Both the position numbers and the translations under genes were made by a program. A DNA stretch of 64,000 bases, from sequence record OZ035795.1; one strand, given 5' to 3'. The notes below the pieces were generated by a model. It saw only the letters and a program-made list of their open reading frames with translations. It did no database searches and was not told where the DNA came from. Positions within the stretch are counted from its first letter, which is position 1. Each line of letters starts with the position of its first letter. Shown here in pieces: positions 8,137 to 42,255 of the stretch. The stretch comes from Krischvirus LF73P4.

Positions 8137-10815
8137 ATGTATTTTCTGTCATGTGAGCGAGTGGGTGATAAGATCTACGAGCGTTATATTGATGATGCTG
8201 GACAAGAACAAGAGCGTTACGTTGAATATACGCCAACTTTATTTCATCATGCCGCGCCCGGTATGGTTACGAATTATAAAGATATCTATGGCAAGCCTTG
8301 CATTGCTAAAAAATTCCCATCTATGAACGAGGCCAACAAATGGCGTAAAAAGATGGGAGAAATGGGGCAGGAGGCACTAGGGATGGATGATTTTATCATC
8401 TCCTATCTGTCCGATACATATAAAGGCGAGATTCGATATGACCGAAATAAAATCCGTGTAGCCTGGGTTGATATTGAGGTCACTGCACCGGAATTTCCTA
8501 AACCAGAAGAAGCGAAATATCCTATCGATGCTATTACGCATTATGATTCCGTACATGATCGTTTCTTTGTATTTGATTTGAAAGGAAAAAACGGTGAAAT
8601 CTGGGAAGCAAGCAAGTCTATTCTTCGACCTGATATTGTAGAGCGCGTTGTTTATAACGTCTATGACACAGAAGATGAATTGCTGTTAGAATACATCCGA
8701 TTCTTTGAGGAAAACCGACCCGTTGGTTTCACTGGCTGGAACACAGAAACATTCGATATTCCATATATCATTAAACGTATCAGTAATAAGTTCGGAAGTA
8801 GAACCGCTAACCGTCTAAGCCCATGCGGTAAGATTAAATCCCGAATCTCGCAGGATGATTTTGGCAACGAGCGTGAAGCATTTACGATCATGGGGATCGA
8901 AAGCCTTGATTATATTGACCTGTACAAGAAATTTAGCTTTACGACTCAACCAACATATGCATTAGATTATGTTGCTGAATATGAGACCGGAATCGGTAAG
9001 GTTGATTATGATGGTCCGTTAAAGAAATTGCGTGATGACAACCATCAACTTTACATCGATTATAACATCGGCGACGTTGATCGTGTGCTGGCGATTGATA
9101 AAAAGCGTGGATTTATCGATCTTGTGTATAGTCTATGTTTCTATGCAAAGATTAAATTTAACCATGTTTATAACCCGATGAAAGTATGGGATGCTATTAT
9201 CTTCGGATCTCTGAAAGCAGAGGGTAAAGTAGTACCGGAAAATAAGATACAGCCTAAGCAGACTTATCCTGGCGCATTCGTAAAAGAACCTGTACCGAAT
9301 GCTTACCGTTGGATGATGAGCTTTGACTTAACAAGTCTGTACCCATCTATTATTCGACAGGTTAATATTTCTCCTGAAACAATCGCTGGATCTTTTGATG
9401 CTGCACCGATGCACGAGTATATCAATAAAACTGCACCACGTCCGAGTGATGAGTATTCTTGCTCGCCTAACGGATGGATGTATAGAAAAGATATTCACGG
9501 TATCGTACCGATTGAGATTAAAAAGGTATTCGATCAGCGTAAGCAGTACAAAAACATGATGTTGGCATGTGATCGCAATGCTGAACTCTGTAAAGCGATT
9601 CTACACGATGAAAATCATGTTTATGGGGGAACCATTAGCTATAGCGTTGAAGTGCGTCACGACTTCGATGAAGCGTTTAAATCGATGCTTTCTGAATTGA
9701 GCAAAGATGCCTTAGAGAAATTGCTGGAAGAATGTAAAGACGAGTCGATCTTGTGCAATACAAACCAGCTTTCTCGAAAAGTTTTGATCAACTCCCTTTA
9801 TGGTGCGTTGGGGAATCCTAAATTCCGTTTTTATGATCTCCGTAACGCTAGTGCGATCACACTGTTCGGTCAGCTTGCAATTCAGTGGATTGAGCGTAAG
9901 ATTAACGAATACTTAAACGAGCTTTGCGGAACGACTGATTTTGCATATGTTCGTTATTGTGATACTGACTCCGTTTATGTGCTGGTTAACAATGTTATTG
10001 ATAAGGTTGGCGGGGAAGACCGTTTCGACGATACCGAAAAACTTGTTGACTTCCTTGATAATTTCGGTAAACATCGAATGGAACCTATTATCGACAAGGG
10101 ATATCGCGAGTTATGCGAGTACATGAACAACTATGAGCACTTGATGTTTATGGACCGTGAGGCAATTGCTGGTCCTCCGTTGAAATCTGCGGGTATCGGT
10201 GGATTCTGGACTGGTAAAAAGCGTTATGCTCTTAATGTTTGGGATATGGAAGGAACGCGCTTTGCTGAACCTAAGCTAAAAATCATGGGCTTGGAAACGC
10301 AACGTAGCTCCACCCCTAAAGCATGTCAGAAATCACTGAAAGAATGTATTCGCCGTATGTTGCAGGAAGGTGAAGAGTCATTGCAGGAATACTACGGTAT
10401 TTTTGAGCAAGAATTTAGAAAACTTGACTATCTTGATGTTGCTGCGGTATCATCTGCAAACAACCTACAGAAATACAGCGATTCAAACGGGTATCCGATT
10501 AAGGGTTGTCCGTATGCGGTTAAGAGTGTATTGTGTTATAATCGTAATGCTCGAAAATTCGGACTAGACCCGATTCGTGAGGGTGAGAAGGTTATGATTG
10601 TACCGCTTAAAGACCGAAATCCGTTTGGAGAAATCTGTTTTGGTTGGTTGTCTGGTACTCGTATTCCACCAGAAATTGAATCAGAGGTGTTGAAGTGGTT
10701 GGACTGGCCTTTGTTGTTTAATAAGACTTTCGTCAAACCACTGGAGAACATTACCACGGCTGCAAAGCTGCAATATGAAAAAGTTGCTTCACTGACTGAC
10801 CTGTTTGACATTTAA
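8137..10815 (+). CDS. 43: DNA polymerase gp43 (family B, with 3'-5' exonuclease)
   Basis: 892 aa from ATG 8137 (AAGGAG upstream); motifs DIEV, SLYPS, YCDTDS; collinear with T4 gp43. Confidence 0.95.
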   Translation: MYFLSCERVGDKIYERYIDDAGQEQERYVEYTPTLFHHAAPGMVTNYKDIYGKPCIAKKFPSMNEANKWRKKMGEMGQEALGMDDFIISYLSDTYKGEIRYDRNKIRVAWVDIEVTAPEFPKPEEAKYPIDAITHYDSVHDRFFVFDLKGKNGEIWEASKSILRPDIVERVVYNVYDTEDELLLEYIRFFEENRPVGFTGWNTETFDIPYIIKRISNKFGSRTANRLSPCGKIKSRISQDDFGNEREAFTIMGIESLDYIDLYKKFSFTTQPTYALDYVAEYETGIGKVDYDGPLKKLRDDNHQLYIDYNIGDVDRVLAIDKKRGFIDLVYSLCFYAKIKFNHVYNPMKVWDAIIFGSLKAEGKVVPENKIQPKQTYPGAFVKEPVPNAYRWMMSFDLTSLYPSIIRQVNISPETIAGSFDAAPMHEYINKTAPRPSDEYSCSPNGWMYRKDIHGIVPIEIKKVFDQRKQYKNMMLACDRNAELCKAILHDENHVYGGTISYSVEVRHDFDEAFKSMLSELSKDALEKLLEECKDESILCNTNQLSRKVLINSLYGALGNPKFRFYDLRNASAITLFGQLAIQWIERKINEYLNELCGTTDFAYVRYCDTDSVYVLVNNVIDKVGGEDRFDDTEKLVDFLDNFGKHRMEPIIDKGYRELCEYMNNYEHLMFMDREAIAGPPLKSAGIGGFWTGKKRYALNVWDMEGTRFAEPKLKIMGLETQRSSTPKACQKSLKECIRRMLQEGEESLQEYYGIFEQEFRKLDYLDVAAVSSANNLQKYSDSNGYPIKGCPYAVKSVLCYNRNARKFGLDPIREGEKVMIVPLKDRNPFGEICFGWLSGTRIPPEIESEVLKWLDWPLLFNKTFVKPLENITTAAKLQYEKVASLTDLFDI

Positions 10816-10832
10816 GATAAAGTGTGTATAAT
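10805..10832 (+). promoter_or_regulatory. sigma70-type promoter TTGACA-16-TATAAT overlapping end of gene 43
   Basis: -35 at 10805-10810, -10 at 10827-10832; GGCGGGT/ACCCGCC hairpin at 10833-10859 downstream. Confidence 0.45.
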
Positions 10833-10876
10833 GGCGGGTGTTGGGTGACGATACCCGCCAATGTGAGAAATATATT

Positions 10877-11065
10877 ATGAGAGACATTGAAAAGATTAAA
10901 CGTGAACGTGAGGAAGGCATAGAGCATTTCAAGAAAGTTCACGGAAATCACAGCAACGAAGTATTTGTGACGATCAATGTTGATGCGATGAAAAAGTTAA
11001 TTCAAGAGCACTACAAAGATCGAATAACAATGAAGCAATTAAAGTATTACGGATTAACTGAATAG
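10877..11065 (+). CDS. hypothetical protein
   Basis: 62-aa ORF between gene 43 and uvsX. Confidence 0.4.
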   Translation: MRDIEKIKREREEGIEHFKKVHGNHSNEVFVTINVDAMKKLIQEHYKDRITMKQLKYYGLTE

Positions 11066-11076
11066 AGGTATTAATA

Positions 11077-12147
11077 ATGTCTGTACTGGAAAAACTGAAA
11101 AAGAACTCTACCCTGAAAACTACTGCGGTACTGTCTAAATCCAGCTTCTTTAACGAAAAAACAAATACTCGCACTAAGATCCCGATGCTGAATATTGCGT
11201 TTTCAGGTGATCTTAAAAAGGGCTTTCAATCTGGTCTGATTTTCTTTGCTGGTCCGTCTAAGCACTTTAAATCAAACATGGGATTAACTTGTGTTAGTGC
11301 ATACATGAAACAGAATCCTGATGCGGCGTGTTTGTTCTTTGATTCTGAGTTCGGTATTACACCCGCTTATCTTGAATCTATGGGTGTAGATCCTGATCGC
11401 GTGGTGCATGTTCCAATCAAGAACATCGAAGAACTTAAATTTGAAATCATGAACCAGCTTGAGCAAATTACCCGTGAAGATAAAGTGATCATCTTTATTG
11501 ACTCAATCGGTAACTTAGCAAGTAAAAAAGAAGTTGAAGACGCGATTAATGAGAAATCCGCACAGGATATGACGCGAGCTAAAGCACTTAAAGGCTTGTT
11601 CCGTATGGTGACGCCATATCTGACTATGAATGATATCCCGTGCATCGCTATTAACCACACTTACGAAACGCAAGAAATGTTTAGTAAGACCGTTATGTCC
11701 GGCGGTACGGGCGCGATGTATTCAGCCAATGAAGTTTTCATTATTGGTCGTCGTCAGCAGAAAGAAGGAACCGAAATTACTGGTTATGATTTTATCCTGA
11801 ATGCGGAAAAATCACGAACCGTTAAAGAAAAATCTAAGTTCCCGATTAGCGTAACATTTAGCGGTGGTATCGATCCTTATTCCGGCTTGCTGGAATTGGC
11901 TGTAGAGTTAGGCTGGGTAGTGAAACCGTCAAACGGCTGGTATTCTCGTTCAATCCTAAATACCGAGACCGGAGAGATGGAAACCGAAGAACGCAAGTTC
12001 CGTGCTAAAGAAACCAATAGCATTGAGTTCTGGAAACCACTTCTGACAAACGATAAGTTTAACGAAGCAATCAACGATCATTATAAGCTGGGGCAAGTGA
12101 TCAGCGACGAAGCAGTTGACAAAGAAATCGAAGATATGTTAGCATAA
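11077..12147 (+). CDS. uvsX: RecA-like recombinase UvsX
   Basis: 356 aa; collinear similarity to T4 UvsX as recalled (e.g. KIPMLNIAFSG, IAINHTYETQEMFSKTVM). Confidence 0.9.
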   Translation: MSVLEKLKKNSTLKTTAVLSKSSFFNEKTNTRTKIPMLNIAFSGDLKKGFQSGLIFFAGPSKHFKSNMGLTCVSAYMKQNPDAACLFFDSEFGITPAYLESMGVDPDRVVHVPIKNIEELKFEIMNQLEQITREDKVIIFIDSIGNLASKKEVEDAINEKSAQDMTRAKALKGLFRMVTPYLTMNDIPCIAINHTYETQEMFSKTVMSGGTGAMYSANEVFIIGRRQQKEGTEITGYDFILNAEKSRTVKEKSKFPISVTFSGGIDPYSGLLELAVELGWVVKPSNGWYSRSILNTETGEMETEERKFRAKETNSIEFWKPLLTNDKFNEAINDHYKLGQVISDEAVDKEIEDMLA

Positions 12148-12158
12148 CAATGGTAGTA

Positions 12159-12181
12159 AAGGGGCTACGTGCCCCTTTTTC
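12159..12181 (+). terminator. rho-independent terminator
   Basis: AGGGGC-tacgt-GCCCCT hairpin followed by TTTTT. Confidence 0.55.
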
Positions 12182-12202
12182 ATATCTAGAGAGGATTATA
12201 TT

Positions 12203-12520
12203 ATGGATAAGAAACCAACAAGTTTAGAAGAAGCACACAGCTTGATTCAAGAAGCAATGAAGACAGTTATCCAGGAACTGATAATTGTTGATGAAGAGGG
12301 AGAACATCATATTGTCTATATTCATAATGTTGAATACGATCCAGACACTAAAGGTATTATGGTCGACTACTCCACGCCGTCAGATCGTGATGTGGTATAT
12401 CCACACGTCATTAAGGCGTTAACCGCGCAGATCAAAGAAGCAGAAGAAAAGTTGAAAAAAGAAACTTTCTGGTATAAACTCAAGACCTTTGTTATGCGTG
12501 TAGTTGGGGGCTATGTATGA
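12203..12520 (+). CDS. hypothetical protein (at position of T4 gene 40)
   Basis: 105-aa ORF between uvsX and gene 41; assignment by position only. Confidence 0.4.
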   Translation: MDKKPTSLEEAHSLIQEAMKTVIQELIIVDEEGEHHIVYIHNVEYDPDTKGIMVDYSTPSDRDVVYPHVIKALTAQIKEAEEKLKKETFWYKLKTFVMRVVGGYV

Positions 12521-13929
12521 TTAAAACTATCTTTTCACAGTTGATTTACAATGGCGCATTCTTTACGAATGTATGGCCTCACCTTAAAGCGGACTACTTC
12601 ACCGAAGACGAAGAAAAACTGATTTATAAGCTGATTAAAAAGCACGTAGACGAATATTCCAATATTCCTACGCCAACAGCATTACAGATTGCTTTAGACA
12701 AGGAGAGAGGCAATCAGACAACATATGAAGGGGCGAAAACTCTTCTTGATTCGCTTGAGAATACACCGGAAGACCTTGATTGGTTAATGAAGGAAACCGA
12801 AAAATTTATTCGTGACCGCGCTATGTATAATGCAATGTCACGGGCGCTAGAGATTCAGGCGAACGCACAACTACCAAAAGAGAAACAGAATAAGAAATTG
12901 CCTAGTGAGGGCGCTATTCCTGAAATTATGCAGGAAGCACTATCCATTACGTTTGATTCTGATGTAGGTCATGACTGGTTTAATGACTTTGAAAAACGAT
13001 TCTTGCTATATCAGACTAAGGCGAATAAGATCCCATTTAAGCTGCCGATGTTGAATAAAATCACGAAAGGAGGGGCGGAAAGAAAAACGCTAAATGTGTT
13101 GCTTGCTGGTGTAAACGTTGGTAAATCGCTTGGATTGTGTTCTCTTGCTGCGGATTATATGGAATGTGGTTATGATGTATTGTATATCTCAATGGAGATG
13201 GCAGAGCATGTCGTAGCCAAACGTATCGACGCAAACTTGCTTGACATTACATTAGATGAATTGGATAATGGTAATGTTTCTTTTGCGGAATATTCCGCAC
13301 GCATGAAGCGTGTTAAGAATAAGAAGATCGGGGATCGTCCGGTTGGAAAATTGATGATCAAGCAGTATCCGACTGGTGGCGCGAACTCCAATCACTTTGA
13401 GGCGTTAATGAATGAATTGCGACTCAAGAAACAGTTTAAACCTGATGTTGTGATTGTTGACTATCTTGGGATTTGCGCATCGTCTCGCTTGCGTGTATAC
13501 TCTGAAAATAGTTACACACTAGTTAAGGCGATTGCGGAAGAACTGCGAGGATTTTTTGTTAAGTGGGATGTTGTTGGTTGGACTGCGGCACAGACTACCC
13601 GCGCTGGTTGGGATGCTTCCGACCTTAACATGAGTGATACCGCTGAATCAGCAGGTCTTCCGGCTACAGCCGACTTTATGTTGGGTGTTATCGAAACCGA
13701 AGACCTGGCTAAAATGGGCGTCCAACTCATGAAGCAGATCAAGTCTCGTTACGGTGATAAGAACTATTATTCACGGTTTAACGTTGGTGTGAAGAAAGGC
13801 AATCAGCGTTGGTATGAAGTACCAAACCAGATCGCAGATCAGGAGAACGCACAAGTTAAACCACAAAGCGCACAGCAAGCCGAGAAACGCGAAAAACTCG
13901 ACGAGCTAGCAAATACCATGACTTTCTAA
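12517..13929 (+). CDS. 41: replicative DNA helicase gp41 (DnaB-like)
   Basis: 470 aa; Walker A GVNVGKS; collinear with T4 gp41 as recalled. Confidence 0.95.
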   Translation: MIKTIFSQLIYNGAFFTNVWPHLKADYFTEDEEKLIYKLIKKHVDEYSNIPTPTALQIALDKERGNQTTYEGAKTLLDSLENTPEDLDWLMKETEKFIRDRAMYNAMSRALEIQANAQLPKEKQNKKLPSEGAIPEIMQEALSITFDSDVGHDWFNDFEKRFLLYQTKANKIPFKLPMLNKITKGGAERKTLNVLLAGVNVGKSLGLCSLAADYMECGYDVLYISMEMAEHVVAKRIDANLLDITLDELDNGNVSFAEYSARMKRVKNKKIGDRPVGKLMIKQYPTGGANSNHFEALMNELRLKKQFKPDVVIVDYLGICASSRLRVYSENSYTLVKAIAEELRGFFVKWDVVGWTAAQTTRAGWDASDLNMSDTAESAGLPATADFMLGVIETEDLAKMGVQLMKQIKSRYGDKNYYSRFNVGVKKGNQRWYEVPNQIADQENAQVKPQSAQQAEKREKLDELANTMTF

Positions 13930-33036: not shown

Positions 33037-33795
33037 ATGAAAAACATTATCGCTGCTATCGTTCTTTCCGCTACTGCTTTCGGTGCTAATGCTGCGTCCT
33101 TTGATTGCGCTAAAGCTACTACCAAATCAGAGAAGTTTATTTGTGCTAATGAGTCTATCTCCGCACTGGACTCTAAACTTCATGAAGTGTATGTTAAGGC
33201 TGTTAAGATTGATCCGTCTCTGAAACAAGAGCAACGAAACTGGAATAAAACTGTTCGTGATACAATGATCAATATCGGGCAGATTCAGCCACTGGAGGCT
33301 GTATACAACGCTCAAATCCAAAACTTGATGAATGTATTACCTAAAGAAGAAACCGCGTCAGAAAGCGATTCAGAGACTTCTGCGAAGGTTGAAGAAGAAC
33401 AACCGAAACAGGAAGCAAAAGTGGTAGAAGAACCGAAGGTCGAAACTTTTACCTATCAATGCACCGTTCGTTATGAGTGGAGTATGAAAGATGGAATTTC
33501 CACAAAAATTAAAGAAGCGCCACTGTATGCCAAATATGGAAATCAACCAGGAGATCTTAAAGTAACCATTAAAAATGGGAAGATGGTTGATTTTGTATAC
33601 ATTGATGAATACAACGTACACAAAGCAAACGTACAAGAAACCGTTATGACTAAAGGCGGGTTTTATAAGAATGTTGGCAAGAAAGATCTATATGAATACT
33701 CCGTTTTCGAACCAAACGACGGAACTATTCGATTCGAAAAACGTCATCCTACATTCGGTGGCGCAATTGATGTAGATCAATACGTTTGCAAGTAA
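33037..33795 (+). CDS. exported protein with DUF1311/LprI-like N-terminal domain
   Basis: Signal peptide ending ANA; FDCAKATT..EKFIC..ESISALDSKL..Y motif; acidic/lysine linker. Confidence 0.55.
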   Translation: MKNIIAAIVLSATAFGANAASFDCAKATTKSEKFICANESISALDSKLHEVYVKAVKIDPSLKQEQRNWNKTVRDTMINIGQIQPLEAVYNAQIQNLMNVLPKEETASESDSETSAKVEEEQPKQEAKVVEEPKVETFTYQCTVRYEWSMKDGISTKIKEAPLYAKYGNQPGDLKVTIKNGKMVDFVYIDEYNVHKANVQETVMTKGGFYKNVGKKDLYEYSVFEPNDGTIRFEKRHPTFGGAIDVDQYVCK

Positions 33796-36104: not shown

Positions 36105-36761
36105 TTATCTAATCCTTCCGAGGATTCTGGCAGATTGATTGCAAAGAGTATCTAAATTCTCAATGTCAATATCCGGTTTATTCTTCCATGCAATGGAGAT
36201 ACTACCAGAATAGACATTATCGAGATTGAATATAGGGCAAGAATACATAAACCCTATATCGATACTCTCTAATTTCTTTTCTCTTGATGGAATATACTGG
36301 AAATCTTTATCGGTAAAATATGATTTACCTAAAAGATGCCTACGATATTCTTCACTCGTTTTATTGATAGGGAATCCGCCTAAATTTTTTTCATCGATTG
36401 TATGCGGTAACTTTCCTTCATATGCCACCAAATCAACAAAATAGTTTAGGTTTTTCGGACGAAAACTAAAAACAGCAGAAAAATCGGCATCAGCCGACAC
36501 ATGAACTATCTGTAACTGCTCCTGTGCTGCATTATCAAAATTGCGGTCTTTCTCTACCTGGAGAACGTGAGCATAAGTCTCATAACGAGTCTCTTTATAA
36601 AGCGCAAATAACTCGTTTTTACTATAAACGACAAATGCTAATATAGACAACACGACGGCAGCAAAAACACGAAGTACGAGCAACTCCGTGCTTTTAGTTG
36701 TGAAAATAGCGCGCAGGACATTTGAGATAGCAAAGTCTTTCCCTTTTTCAGAAACTTGCAT
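36105..36761 (-). CDS. t: holin T (lysis protein t)
   Basis: 218 aa, same length and strong similarity to T4 holin as recalled (LQIVHVSADADFSAVFSFRPKNLNYFVD...). Confidence 0.9.
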   Translation of the reverse strand: MQVSEKGKDFAISNVLRAIFTTKSTELLVLRVFAAVVLSILAFVVYSKNELFALYKETRYETYAHVLQVEKDRNFDNAAQEQLQIVHVSADADFSAVFSFRPKNLNYFVDLVAYEGKLPHTIDEKNLGGFPINKTSEEYRRHLLGKSYFTDKDFQYIPSREKKLESIDIGFMYSCPIFNLDNVYSGSISIAWKNKPDIDIENLDTLCNQSARILGRIR

Positions 36762-36794: not shown

Positions 36795-37034
36795 TTATTT
36801 AGGTAGTTGACTATCACTATTTTTATTTTGCTCGTTGCTATCTTCTGACTGATCTTTATTAAACTCCTTATAAAGTTCTTCCACAAAACGATCATCAATT
36901 GGCGTATTGGTATAAGCCGCAAGACGACGAGCGCAATAGAAGAAAATTTTAGTGAGCATCTTTTCACTAATTAACTTTGACAATAGTTTCATTCCGAAAT
37001 TAGACAAAGCACCAATGACGATATTATAGACCAT
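36795..37034 (-). CDS. hypothetical protein between adhesin and holin
   Basis: 79 aa; AAGGAG 8 nt upstream of ATG; hydrophobic N-terminus, acidic tail. Confidence 0.5.
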   Translation of the reverse strand: MVYNIVIGALSNFGMKLLSKLISEKMLTKIFFYCARRLAAYTNTPIDDRFVEELYKEFNKDQSEDSNEQNKNSDSQLPK

Positions 37035-37097
37035 AGCCGTTTCTCCTTAGTAGTTCCCTTCCGTGGGAGTTTTCCTTAATTCTTTTTATAATTGCGT

Positions 37098-37880
37098 CTA
37101 AACAGCCGGTCCGTAAATAGCTCCGCGATTTTGCCACGTTGGAGAAGACCCTATAACAGCATATCCAGAATCGCCGCCATTATATTCAGATCCTTGACCA
37201 CGAATATTACATCTACCTCCTGCGGCGCCTACCTCACCACCGCTTCCACCATTATAGATACCGTTCACGGACCCCGAACCGGGCGCATAAAGAGTACCAG
37301 CAGTTGCGCCTGATTGCATATCAATAGATCCGCCCGGCGCACCAAACGGACGCCCACCGCCACCGCCAAAGGTTAATCTCATTTGTGAAAAAGGAGAATA
37401 ATACCCGCCACCGCCACCGCCACCGCCACCTGCAATAGCTCCACCATTATTAATTCTTAGTCTCCCACCAATATCATTTTGAATACAATGCCCCCCGGCT
37501 GATCCAGGACCATTGCTACCGCCATTCCCGCCACGACCATACATCGTTACGCCATGTATATTCAACTGAACATATTCATTCGGTGTATCTCCGTACATAA
37601 AGAATAAAGGAACATCTTTAGAATATGATACTAAATCTCCAGTGATATTAAACACTATAGGTGTACTACCTGCTTCAAAGCATCTATCACGGAACCACTG
37701 ACCGTTGAAGTTATGGTCTGCACCAAGTGTATGAATAATTTCTCGCGAGCGACCTGCAAATTGACTCATCCAGCAAGGAACACCCAATCTTAATTGACCA
37801 GCCGCTTGACTCATCCATCGTTGTCCTGTTTCATTTGCGGCTGAACTTCCAATCCAACCAGGAACACCAACTACTGCCAT
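37098..37880 (-). CDS. 38: long tail fibre tip adhesin gp38 (T2-type, glycine-rich motifs)
   Basis: 260 aa; conserved N-terminal domain then poly-Gly runs separated by variable segments. Confidence 0.9.
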
Positions 37881-37893
37881 AATTTATACTCCA

Positions 37894-37912
37894 AAGGGGG
37901 CAACGCCCCCTT
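37894..37912 (-). other. tight stem-loop AAGGGGGC-aac-GCCCCCTT between gene 37 and gene 38
   Basis: Perfect 8-bp inverted repeat with 3-nt loop. Confidence 0.4.
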
Positions 37913-37916
37913 GTTG

Positions 37917-40697
37917 TTAGAATTTAAAATATTTACTAATTTTGCGAGCAATTTTAGTAAAGAAAGGAGTTTTCAATTCTTTAATTTCTTCACTCATTTC
38001 CTGAATAGCCTTAATTAAAAGAGCATTCACTGCCGAGTTAGAAATTGTCAGAACATCAGATCCATCAACTTCAACTTTAGATACAGCTTCCGGCAATTCT
38101 TTTTCAAGATCCTGAGCAATAATACCAGCTTCACGTTTAATCACACTACGATCTTTAATAGACTTAACTTTATCGTAAGTATAAACTTTCAGACGGCATA
38201 CTTTTTCAAGTGCTCCGTTTTCTAACTCTTCTTTATTAATCTTAAGACGGGAGTCAGAACGAATATACACATCGCTAAAGCTACCATTTCCTGGTGTATA
38301 AAAGAACCCATCATGATGGAATTCAAACACAGCTTGTGGGTGTCCAGCATCAGGAGAAGCCTCCGTGGATCCGACACGAATGATTGCTTGCCCCCACTGT
38401 GATGGAATACGACGCATACCAAAGTCAACAGCGGTGCTATATCCTTGATTGGTTATAACGCTTCTTGCTTTAAGAATAGGATAATAACTATCTTGACCAA
38501 CATAACCATGATCAACGAATAATGGAGCTTCTACTCGCCATTGGTTGCCCCAATCACCTGGTTGTCTGGCAACCCAACTTGCACCATTGATATACATACG
38601 ATCGCGGTTAACGTTAACCATTAAGGTATTTTGCGGGTTTAAAGATATCTCGCCAGAATTTGTAATATAAATTGCAGAATTACTAGCATAACTAAAAAAC
38701 CCTAATCCGTTATCAGCGCCTCCTTTCCCTATATACCAATTATTATTACCATCACAACTACCCAACAAATAAACCGAATCTCCAGATGACGGAGCATTCA
38801 AAACTATTGCGTCCGAACCACGATTAACAGTTATTTTATCGGAAGATTCTATTTGACCAAAGAATTTAGTTTTAATTGCACCAGTCGCTAAAGTACGTTC
38901 AGTGGAAAAATGAGCGCCTTTGCTATCTTCTAACTGAATAATGTTATCACGAGCGTTATTGCTATCACCCCAATGGTTAAATTTAAAATAATCTCGTGAT
39001 CCTAAACGTCCGGCGTCAAAAGTCATCAAGCCTTTCATGTTAATATCACCACCAAAAAATGCGGTGAGAGAATCACGTTTTAATTTTAAAACGTTAGCAC
39101 CACTAGTACCACCCAAAGTAACATCACCAGTTCTTAATTCATAACGGAAAGGTCTATTTGTATTAAAGTTTCCATCTTGATCATTTTCGTCGGTGGAAAG
39201 AATATAAAGACTCTCTCCATCATTACGTAAAAATGCACCAAATTTTCCGCCATACATACGGAATGCATTCAACGAGCGGAATTTAACTTCTGTTTTAAAT
39301 GTGGTAGTGTTATTAAGGTTAACAGTAGAGTTAAAGTTAACTGCGCCATTAAAATCTTGTTTAGCAGTCCAAGTATGTGATCCGTCTTCAAGAACAACAC
39401 GGCGAACTGTACAAGTTCTATTTCCCGGATTACCAGCAACACGAACGACAAAATAACGGTAGTTTGTCTGGGATACAGTACCACGCCAAACCTGAACAGT
39501 ACGCCCTGTGCCAGTGTGTTCGCTAGGACCGACAGAAAACATAACCAAGTTTCCGTCAATCGCACCCCAATCCATATTTGCTGGCATGTTCTTTATTTTG
39601 TTCAAAGGAACACTAAACATACTACCAGGGACAAAATCAAAGGTTTGCCAGTCTAGCTCCGCTAATTGAGATTTAACACCACCCATACCCAGAGTGATCG
39701 GCATAGAATAGGACGTATATACTTCGTACCAATTTCCCCAGATGTTATTTGTCATCGCACGTTCAAACACGCGAGATCGCGTAGTTGCACCCGTTCCTGC
39801 GGTAGTGAAACGTTGGAAAATAGCGGCACCGGAAGCACGCTGTTTAACCTCAAGCAATCCGGTCATCTCAACCGGAACACCTTCTGCAACTGGACGGTTA
39901 ATAACGGCATCAGTCCCTAAAATGTTATACAAGCCAGGAGAACGAAAATTATTAAGATCCCCGTCATAGAATGTGTTTGGAGTAACCATACCTACTTGTT
40001 GCCACGGTCCCCAATTCGGAGCTTCTGGATCCCATGCACCAGCAAGACAACGAACATATACAACACCCATTCGGGTAGTATAACGTTGCGTGCGAGAATA
40101 GTTACCACCTTCATAAATTTCTAAAAGACCTTGCGCGAGACCACCTTCTTCTGGGTAATTTCGAGAAAATGATGCAATGGAACTTAAACTATTTCGCCAT
40201 AACCCAAAATGAGAAGCATCACCTAAAGTATTCAAGTCTAGTGTAGTTGATAGTGGACGTGTGCCAGTTTGAATATTGCGCCACGGACCCCATGGACCAT
40301 CTACGCCATTCCATTTAGCAGACAAAGAACGGATATAAACGTTACCAGACCGAACAGTATAACGCTGAGTGCCAGCAAATTGACCAGCCACAAATACTTC
40401 TAATACACCTACAGCATTCTCTTCTGGGAATTTATTTGCTGGCTGCGCATTTGTTGAAGTTGATTTAGACCAAACGCCAGTAAATTTACCAGTAGGTCCA
40501 TAATTATCTAAATTTGCATCAGATGGCAACTCACCGCGAAAGTGTCCCAAAGTAATTACATTATTGCTGTCATCTTTTGTATATAGTTCTCGATCCGCTA
40601 GGTTAATAGCAAGTTCACCCGGAGTTAGAATATTCGCATCCGGCTTGCGACCTGCCGTACTTGTTCTTTTAAATTGGATTCTCTGTAAATCTGCCAT
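37917..40697 (-). CDS. 37: long tail fibre distal subunit gp37, with C-terminal intramolecular-chaperone-like segment
   Basis: 926 aa; N-terminus QRIQFKRTSTAG...GELAINL like T4 gp37; SDSRLK motif about 113 aa from C-terminus. Confidence 0.9.
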   Translation of the reverse strand: MADLQRIQFKRTSTAGRKPDANILTPGELAINLADRELYTKDDSNNVITLGHFRGELPSDANLDNYGPTGKFTGVWSKSTSTNAQPANKFPEENAVGVLEVFVAGQFAGTQRYTVRSGNVYIRSLSAKWNGVDGPWGPWRNIQTGTRPLSTTLDLNTLGDASHFGLWRNSLSSIASFSRNYPEEGGLAQGLLEIYEGGNYSRTQRYTTRMGVVYVRCLAGAWDPEAPNWGPWQQVGMVTPNTFYDGDLNNFRSPGLYNILGTDAVINRPVAEGVPVEMTGLLEVKQRASGAAIFQRFTTAGTGATTRSRVFERAMTNNIWGNWYEVYTSYSMPITLGMGGVKSQLAELDWQTFDFVPGSMFSVPLNKIKNMPANMDWGAIDGNLVMFSVGPSEHTGTGRTVQVWRGTVSQTNYRYFVVRVAGNPGNRTCTVRRVVLEDGSHTWTAKQDFNGAVNFNSTVNLNNTTTFKTEVKFRSLNAFRMYGGKFGAFLRNDGESLYILSTDENDQDGNFNTNRPFRYELRTGDVTLGGTSGANVLKLKRDSLTAFFGGDINMKGLMTFDAGRLGSRDYFKFNHWGDSNNARDNIIQLEDSKGAHFSTERTLATGAIKTKFFGQIESSDKITVNRGSDAIVLNAPSSGDSVYLLGSCDGNNNWYIGKGGADNGLGFFSYASNSAIYITNSGEISLNPQNTLMVNVNRDRMYINGASWVARQPGDWGNQWRVEAPLFVDHGYVGQDSYYPILKARSVITNQGYSTAVDFGMRRIPSQWGQAIIRVGSTEASPDAGHPQAVFEFHHDGFFYTPGNGSFSDVYIRSDSRLKINKEELENGALEKVCRLKVYTYDKVKSIKDRSVIKREAGIIAQDLEKELPEAVSKVEVDGSDVLTISNSAVNALLIKAIQEMSEEIKELKTPFFTKIARKISKYFKF

Positions 40698-40741
40698 TTT
40701 ATAAAATCCTTAACGGTTGTTAGAATAATATTATTTAGAAA

Positions 40742-40760
40742 AGCGGGGATTATCCCCGCT
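40742..40760 (-). terminator. stem-loop AGCGGGGA-tta-TCCCCGCT, partial terminator/attenuator between gp36-like gene and gene 37
   Basis: 8-bp perfect inverted repeat; short U-run follows on - strand. Confidence 0.4.
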
Positions 40761-40764
40761 AGAA

Positions 40765-42255
40765 TTAGAAAGTACCAAAATCAATTACCGCATTAAGCGG
40801 AACAGCGCCAACATCATCAGGAGTTGGTTTGTGTCCTTCGTGGTATAATTCAAATGTATCGGTGTCCTGAGTATTGTTGCGTGATTTAACGAAAATAATT
40901 TTAGAATCATGTGTGATGCCTAGTTTCTCGTGCGCTTTAATATCACTAACACGATGAATCATTGCTGTGCCATCTAAGCTATTAAGTCCAGCGTAGCAAT
41001 TATCACCATTATAGTTAGCTTTTGCGGTACGAACGCCGTTTGCAGCGGGAACTGTCAAAGCACCTCTCATGGTATCGCCAGTCACATTAACATAGCGAGC
41101 ATCAGCCAATTTACGGTGATCTACATAGTTCCATGCGGTCCATGATTCATTAGAACAAGAACGCCAGCACATCGGATGATCAATAGATTCAGGATAGTAT
41201 ACCTGAACAATTCGACGAGTACCGACCGCATCTTCTGGGCGATATACCATCAAAACGCCGTTATAATAGCTATCAGACGGTTTATTAGTACCTGATCCAG
41301 CATTTTCCACACGATAGATACCGCGATTAATAAGAGTGTTCCAATCAACGTTTCCAATGATTGTTGGATTTGCTACCATTGATTTTTTCTCAAAGTAGCT
41401 CAAACGAACCAATTCATTAGGACCAGCAGGATCGTTTGTCGCCAACATTCTAGGCGCTTGCAAGTTACCTTCCATAATATCACCAGCACGTTTAACCTGT
41501 GCATCATTGGTGACATTACCTAGTCCAACATCGGCTTTAGTCGGTTTATTGTTGGTGTGGTAGAATCTACCTGCCTTGCCATTAACAGAAATTGTCGGCT
41601 CGTTTTTGCTACTGAATGCCAAAGTATCAAGACTATTTCCAAAATAAATGGCATTAGAATCGAAAGCAATGAAACCACGATCCCGCGCAAGTATTTTCGA
41701 ATTAACATCAAGTTTAAATGTAGCCGTGTTTAAATTATACGTTCCCGTGAGAGTATCACCGCGACGAGACACCAAATCCAAATCATTGTTTGTCGGCTTA
41801 TTAACAGGACTATAGACGCGTTGACCAGTGTCTTTAATGGTTGTCCCTTCGATGGTCCCTTTAGTTTTAAAATCACCTGTGGTAGTGTCAATATAAGCCA
41901 TGATAACATCATCACGAGCATTAACAAAACCAATAGATTTCCACGAATGCAAACCCCAACTTACACCATCAAAGTTAGCCGCATCGCTCTTTCCTTTAAA
42001 GATCCCGTTCTTTTTGGTTTCTCCACCGGATGCGCTACCTACGCTTAAACCTTCCTCAAAATGGACCAGTTTCTGAAATGTACCACCCTCAGATGCACTA
42101 ACAGCATCAAAATCGGCAGCCGAAGGTTTATCAAAAGCGGTATAGATTTTATGACCTTTATAGAAAAGCTGATCACCCGCTGGCTGGATCGTCAAGTTTC
42201 CTTGCGTCCAAATGGGAGATCCGCCTACAGTAGATCCATGTTTCAAATCTGCCAT
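40765..42255 (-). CDS. 36: long tail fibre hinge/connector protein, gp36-like (enlarged)
   Basis: 496 aa; N-terminus MADLKHGSTVGGSPIWTQGN...PAGD resembles T4 gp36; directly upstream of gene 37. Confidence 0.6.
   Translation of the reverse strand: MADLKHGSTVGGSPIWTQGNLTIQPAGDQLFYKGHKIYTAFDKPSAADFDAVSASEGGTFQKLVHFEEGLSVGSASGGETKKNGIFKGKSDAANFDGVSWGLHSWKSIGFVNARDDVIMAYIDTTTGDFKTKGTIEGTTIKDTGQRVYSPVNKPTNNDLDLVSRRGDTLTGTYNLNTATFKLDVNSKILARDRGFIAFDSNAIYFGNSLDTLAFSSKNEPTISVNGKAGRFYHTNNKPTKADVGLGNVTNDAQVKRAGDIMEGNLQAPRMLATNDPAGPNELVRLSYFEKKSMVANPTIIGNVDWNTLINRGIYRVENAGSGTNKPSDSYYNGVLMVYRPEDAVGTRRIVQVYYPESIDHPMCWRSCSNESWTAWNYVDHRKLADARYVNVTGDTMRGALTVPAANGVRTAKANYNGDNCYAGLNSLDGTAMIHRVSDIKAHEKLGITHDSKIIFVKSRNNTQDTDTFELYHEGHKPTPDDVGAVPLNAVIDFGTF

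Follow-up and report, generated by a model that had tools for sequence, protein, structure and literature searches.

The window, by which we mean the whole 64,000-nucleotide stretch of DNA that was analysed, belongs to a T-even-type myovirus whose backbone is Krischvirus (RB49-like). Its distal tail-fibre genes lie on the minus strand, where they run in the order fibre protein at the gp36 position (496 residues, positions 40765 to 42255), gene 37 (37917 to 40697), gene 38 (37098 to 37880), an open reading frame of 79 residues (36795 to 37034) and holin t (36105 to 36761). Gene 37 is an open reading frame of 926 codons and a stop codon that encodes gp37, the distal subunit of the long tail fibre. 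Gene 38, which starts 37 nt past the gp37 stop, encodes a T6-type tail-fibre adhesin of 260 residues with glycine-rich motifs. A consensus scan around the gp37-gp38 junction found neither a terminator nor a promoter. The closest nucleotide match to positions 37000 to 40800 is Escherichia phage vB-Eco-KMB43 (93.5% identity, full coverage), whose record is classified as Straboviridae; Krischvirus.

Two Pfam domains are recognised in gp37, Gp34_trimer and Peptidase_S74. Judged by its sequence, gp37 is of the T6 type from about residue 64 onwards and RB49-like in its N-terminal ~50 residues, with 68% identity to RB49 gp37 over the first 50 residues. Identity to T6 gp37 is 77% overall, rising to approximately 97% over the last ~215 residues (712 to 926), and is 96% over the last 130. 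Unlike T6 gp37, the window protein has an RB49-like N-terminus and is without some 68 residues that are present in T6.

The peptidase S74 domain, of the intramolecular chaperone type and recognised by Pfam, profile and fold alike, occupies residues 814 to 926 (37920 to 38258, minus strand) and extends to the gp37 stop codon, that is, to the extreme C-terminus. A chaperone-like segment of about 113 residues had been placed here by a sequence-only reading of this DNA, and both its coordinates and its count are exact, S814 to F926 being 113 residues. The same reading had claimed an S-D-x-R-x-K motif at the start of the segment. Residues 811 to 833 read YIRSDSRLKINKEELENGALEKV, and the motif is present in them as S814-D-S-R-L-K819 (38241 to 38258, minus strand), in which S814 (codon 38256 to 38258) is the predicted scissile residue and nucleophile, K819 (codon 38241 to 38243) the predicted general base, and the bond between R813 and S814 the predicted site of cleavage. 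The five residues immediately upstream, D809-V-Y-I-R813 (38259 to 38273, minus strand), would then form the C-terminus of mature gp37.

The bare motif is no evidence by itself: at the amino-acid frequencies of the window's six-frame translation, chance alone would produce 1.3 copies, and one was found. The domain, by comparison, is matched well above threshold. The Pfam family PF13884 (Peptidase_S74, 'chaperone of endosialidase') aligns with gp37 residues 814 to 872 with an E-value of 1.3e-11 and a score of 45.0 bits, the gathering cutoff being 22, and the match spans positions 1 to 57 of the 58 in the profile. A hidden Markov model built from homologues found the domain as a single copy among the six translated frames of the window, the next segment scoring only E = 0.7. 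At the same C-terminal position the family also matches gp37 of T2 (56.5 bits), T6 (39.6), S16 (44.9) and RB49 (45.0).

A query profile was made from the segment and 15 homologues (16 sequences in all, hence shallow), and was also supplied to AlphaFold. Against the sequences in the PDB this profile retrieved S16 gp37 (6F45_A, E = 2.1e-13), a putative tail fibre (8JOV, E = 1.9e-7), the ICA domain of MyRF (7DC3, E = 1.2e-5) and, at E = 0.028, the intramolecular chaperone (IMC) of the GA-1 neck appendage (3GUD), which aligned from its residue 1 with the sequence SDERHK. The K1F (3GW6) and T5 (4UW8) chaperones were not retrieved from the PDB at E ≤ 1 with so shallow a profile. Similarity to chaperone domains, which the sequence-only reading had looked to for support, is thus present in both the Pfam (1.3e-11) and the 6F45_A (2.1e-13) comparisons. 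A word-indexed protein search returned only 24 matches, mostly partial and from close relatives, which is why the profile was shallow. Over the last 117 residues of gp37, more than 60 deposited phages show 95-99% identity, among them fPS-90 and the classical phages Ox2 and M1 (deposited as X05675 and X05676; 96-97% identity), and a homologue occurs in 1,552 phage records.

Structure prediction gave the same assignment. An AlphaFold2 model of a single chain comprising gp37 residues 790 to 926 has a mean pLDDT of 79, with values of 87-93 over most of the domain. The modelled fold is H-E-E-H-E-E, comprising four strands and two short helices, followed by a long C-terminal helix, residues 887 to 923 (37929 to 38039, minus strand; DSSP helix 98 to 134 of the 137-residue model). 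The earlier description of a helical segment after the motif is therefore roughly right as to the long helix, but omits the short helices and four strands that come before it. When the PDB was searched with Foldseek, the first 11 ranks all went to IMC or ICA domains (7DC3, 3GUD, 3GW6 and 4UW8), and matches beyond rank 11 had E-values above 0.7. The top structural match was the MyRF ICA domain (TM-score 0.67, E = 9e-6); it alone reached this TM-score, those to the phage chaperone structures being modest (0.44-0.48), with Foldseek probabilities of 0.91-1.00 for the K1F, GA-1 and T5 structures. The T5 chaperone has a coiled-coil core (PMC4690869), and in the solved homologues the counterpart of the predicted long gp37 helix makes up the central trimeric coiled coil.

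The K1F endosialidase, GA-1 and T5 pb1 domains (PF13884, MEROPS S74) resemble that of gp37 in their C-terminal position on a trimeric fibre or spike, in having the same Ser and Lys, and in the succession of an alpha/beta region and a long helix. They differ from it in sequence (14-16% identity), and none of these proteins has an adhesin partner of the gp38 type; K1F and T5 in addition have the beta-hairpin 'tentacles', long insertions of which the window gp37 has none. The MyRF ICA domain (7DC3) is a eukaryotic homologue in an unrelated context. MyRF is a membrane-bound transcription factor of eukaryotes, from which cleavage frees the N-terminal part for import into the nucleus.

In an alignment with K1F (S911/K916), T5 (S1264/K1269), S16, T2 and T6, the columns of S814 and K819 are invariant, as is a 'G..(A/V)Q' motif that reads GIIAQ in the window gp37. 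With a Pfam match above cutoff, the catalytic Ser and Lys aligned and the fold matched, the claim that this segment is an intramolecular chaperone domain stands. The catalytic Ser is preceded by Arg in the window gp37, by Ser in S16 and by Thr in both T5 and K1F. An Arg/Asp 'folding sensor' further upstream (R1250 and D1239 in T5), contributed by a neighbouring chain, completes the active site in T5 and K1F. This sensor could not be mapped on gp37, as T5 and gp37 cannot be aligned in the region upstream. For the T5 protein, the S1264A substitution blocks autoproteolysis, the T1263-S1264 bond is the one cut, and K1269 has been proposed to activate the Ser (PMC4690869). Together with the fibres of S16, the K1F-type tailspikes and that of phi29, the T5 fibres are among the standard examples of C-terminal chaperones that are removed by autoproteolysis (PMC7289586).

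Closer relatives bear on the position of the cut (^). The window junction reads DVYIR^SDSRLKI, and the DVYIR before the predicted site is kept in T6 and RB49. T6, Ox2, M1 and the Yersinia phages fPS-2, -65 and -90 share the junction, DVYIR^SD(S/G)RLKI, and the type of gp38 downstream of it, and differ from the window in backbone, which here is Krischvirus (RB49-like) and not Tequatrovirus. For the fPS phages cleavage was predicted in 2021 at DVYIR^SDGRLKI, in alignment with the S16 site (PMC7917993). The account of S16 in the same source has the last 113 residues of gp37, the IMC, cut off autocatalytically at DLNVS^SDRRIKK once the protein has trimerised; counted from the 749-residue coding sequence with the cut at S637/S638, the fragment is 112 residues long, against the 113 published.

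S16 gp37, known from its complex with gp38 (6F45, Dunne et al. 2018), shares with the window protein a C-terminal S74 domain of some 112-113 residues, the Ser-x4-Lys dyad and a like Pfam score, and is likewise followed by a gp38 that has tryptophans near its N-terminus as well as glycine-rich motifs. The two chaperone domains are, however, only about 27% identical, the junctions differ (DLNVS^SDRRIK in S16, DVYIR^SDSRLK here) and the fibre shafts ahead of the junction are unrelated. That T2 gp37 is processed proteolytically as the fibre forms was shown experimentally by Drexler, Riede & Henning 1986 (cited in PMC3157838). T2 gp37 resembles the window protein in its 'VYIR^SD.RLK' junction, its S74 domain and the gp38 that comes next, and differs in a chaperone domain that is shorter, 44% identical and without the T6-type C-terminal tail. 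By sequence count about 99 residues follow the Ser in T2 gp37, of which some 120 residues are reportedly removed. From the identity of the domain to those of T6, Ox2 and M1, together with the experiments on T2 and S16, we infer that gp37 would be cleaved in this phage also.

The downstream protein is an adhesin of the T2/T6 type. It matches the Pfam families GP38 (PF05268) at 4.4e-71 and Gp38_N (PF21721, the N-terminal attachment domain) at 6.3e-20, and among PDB sequences 9V85 at 7e-77 and S16 gp38 (6F45_D) at 3e-47. Over the N-terminal 60 residues it shares 92% identity with T6 gp38, and when the window is compared with T6, T2 and S16 its tryptophans W9, W22 and W37 do not vary. The suggestion that a gp38 adhesin attaches to this fibre is thus borne out to the extent that a gp38 of T6 type lies directly downstream and retains W9, W22 and W37. 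In the S16 complex, the distal end of gp37 has pockets which the conserved tryptophans at the gp38 N-terminus enter as prongs, and autocleavage of the chaperone is what exposes the docking surface, according to PMC7917993. By analogy, the DVYIR tip strand of the window gp37 is expected to provide the docking face for gp38.

The explanation that we favour, and in which we have high confidence, is that gp37 residues 814 to 926 are an intramolecular chaperone of the S74 family that is cleaved off, freeing the tip of the fibre for docking of gp38. This proposal takes over from the homologues the role of the domain as a chaperone, its cleavage with the precise bond that is cut, and the docking of gp38 after cleavage, and the events would run as follows. 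Three nascent gp37 chains would associate through their C-terminal domains, the long helices forming a coiled coil, and this association would nucleate folding of the trimeric fibre tip and set its register, starting from the C-terminal end. Once the tip has folded, the hydroxyl group of S814, activated by K819, would attack the R813-S814 bond in every chain, and the trimer of 113-residue chaperones would dissociate. This would lay bare a new C-terminal face that ends in DVYIR, and the N-terminal domain of gp38 would dock there through its conserved tryptophans, such that the finished fibre would bear one gp38 as its receptor-binding tip.

Alternatively, the S74-like domain might remain uncleaved and be retained as a structural cap at the C-terminus, with gp38 bound to it or beside it. 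Such a cap would fit with the presence of Arg before the Ser, where structurally characterised members have Ser or Thr, and the co-variation of gp37 C-terminal with gp38 N-terminal subtypes, noted in older work (PMC3157838), would also fit with direct binding to the C-terminal domain. Both catalytic residues are nevertheless conserved, and the DVYIR tip strand is conserved along with the domain. Moreover T2 gp37, with the same VYIR^SD junction, is known to be processed (PMC3157838), and the docking surface for S16 gp38 is described in PMC7917993 as appearing only when the chaperone is removed. We therefore consider retention of the domain quite improbable.

A further reading accepts the cleavage and takes the domain as a folding chaperone only, with exposure of the gp38 site uncoupled from it and gp38 attaching elsewhere or independently. 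T5, K1F and GA-1 indeed use the same domain with no partner of the gp38 type. This reading is at odds with the invariance of the docking tryptophans in the window gp38 and with the S16 complex, where, as described in PMC7917993, the gp38 tryptophans enter pockets at the distal end that are created by the cleavage itself, and it appears to us very improbable. Finally, the likelihood that S-D-x-R-x-K arose by chance and marks no domain, as the count of one copy against 1.3 expected would by itself allow, is virtually nil, this being refuted by the Pfam (1.3e-11) and PDB profile (2e-13) matches, the fold match and the homologues in 1,552 phage records.

The favoured reading, cleavage of the chaperone followed by docking of gp38 on the freed tip, is already known in its essentials from the processing of T2 gp37 (1986), the S16 structure (2018) and the junction prediction for the fPS phages (2021). 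No new question arises from it, since publications on near-identical proteins already cover mechanism, structure and cleavage junction. It would have practical consequences nonetheless. In annotation, mature gp37 should probably end at R813, and residues 814 to 926 would be expected to be missing from virion proteomes. In fibre engineering, any swap of receptor-binding modules would have to take along the gp37 tip together with the chaperone domain and gp38.

At its end the chaperone domain of T6 type carries a basic/aromatic tail of 17 residues that follows a proline, TPFFTKIARKISKYFKF (gp37 residues 910 to 926). In the alignment this tail is absent from the chaperone domains of T2 and RB49, and the S16 domain has a different end. 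It seems to us extremely unlikely that the 113-residue trimer, once cleaved off and released, owes a second function to this tail, such as membrane association, the recruitment of gp38 or gp57A, or the timing of fibre assembly; were it so, the released fragment would be more than a disposable folding aid.

The fibre-tip region of the window (37098..40535) is mosaic with respect to its own flanks, as seen in comparison with the corresponding RB49 locus (8718..12629 in the coordinates of that locus). The surrounding backbone is that of a Krischvirus, whereas gp37, the distal long-tail-fibre subunit, is T6-type from approximately residue 64 onwards, as is the gp38 adhesin. Nucleotide identity with T6 is approximately 85% over 37128..40535, and residues 1-50 of gp37 are still RB49-like (68% identity). 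Gene order in RB49 runs from gp37 through a 79-aa ORF to the holin with no intervening gp38, whereas in the window a T6-type gp38 is inserted between gp37 and this shared ORF (36795..37034, minus strand, between gp38 and holin t). The ORF product is 96% identical to RB49p252, a hypothetical protein that overlaps the annotated 'Dc5'; its N-terminus is hydrophobic, its C-terminus is acidic and rich in Ser and Asn, and a Pfam search with it returned no matches.

The T6-type chaperone domain of gp37 ends, after a proline, in a basic and aromatic tail, TPFFTKIARKISKYFKF (residues 910-926; 37920..37970, minus strand). This tail is lacking from the chaperone domains of T2 and RB49, and that of S16 has a different ending. 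In the AlphaFold monomer model of residues 790-926, pLDDT falls to 65-70 over the tail.

A GC-rich hairpin, GGGGGC-GUU-GCCCCC (37893..37911, minus strand), lies in the gap that separates the gp37 stop (37917) from the gp38 ATG (37880); its folding energy is -17.2 kcal/mol (z = -2.1). It was not scored as a terminator in a consensus scan. Directly 3' of it are a Shine-Dalgarno-like UUUGGAG and UAUAAAUU, the latter similar to the T4 late-promoter box, TATAAATA. The hairpin may act on the gp37 transcript, either attenuating or stabilising it, or it may modulate the translation of gp38.

At the gp36 position the window encodes a protein of 496 aa (40765..42255, minus strand), compared with approximately 220 aa for gp36 of T2 and S16 (660-666-nt coding sequences). 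Its match to Phage_T4_gp36, at 22.4 bits, falls short of the cutoff of 26, and the same 1491-nt gene is carried by both RB49 and the Krischvirus vB-Eco-KMB43.

A 252-aa protein (33037..33795, plus strand), annotated only as hypothetical in KMB43, has an apparent signal peptide and matches the Pfam LprI (lysozyme inhibitor) domain (E 1.4e-5; 25.8 bits, cutoff 22), after which comes an acidic, Lys/Glu-rich linker.
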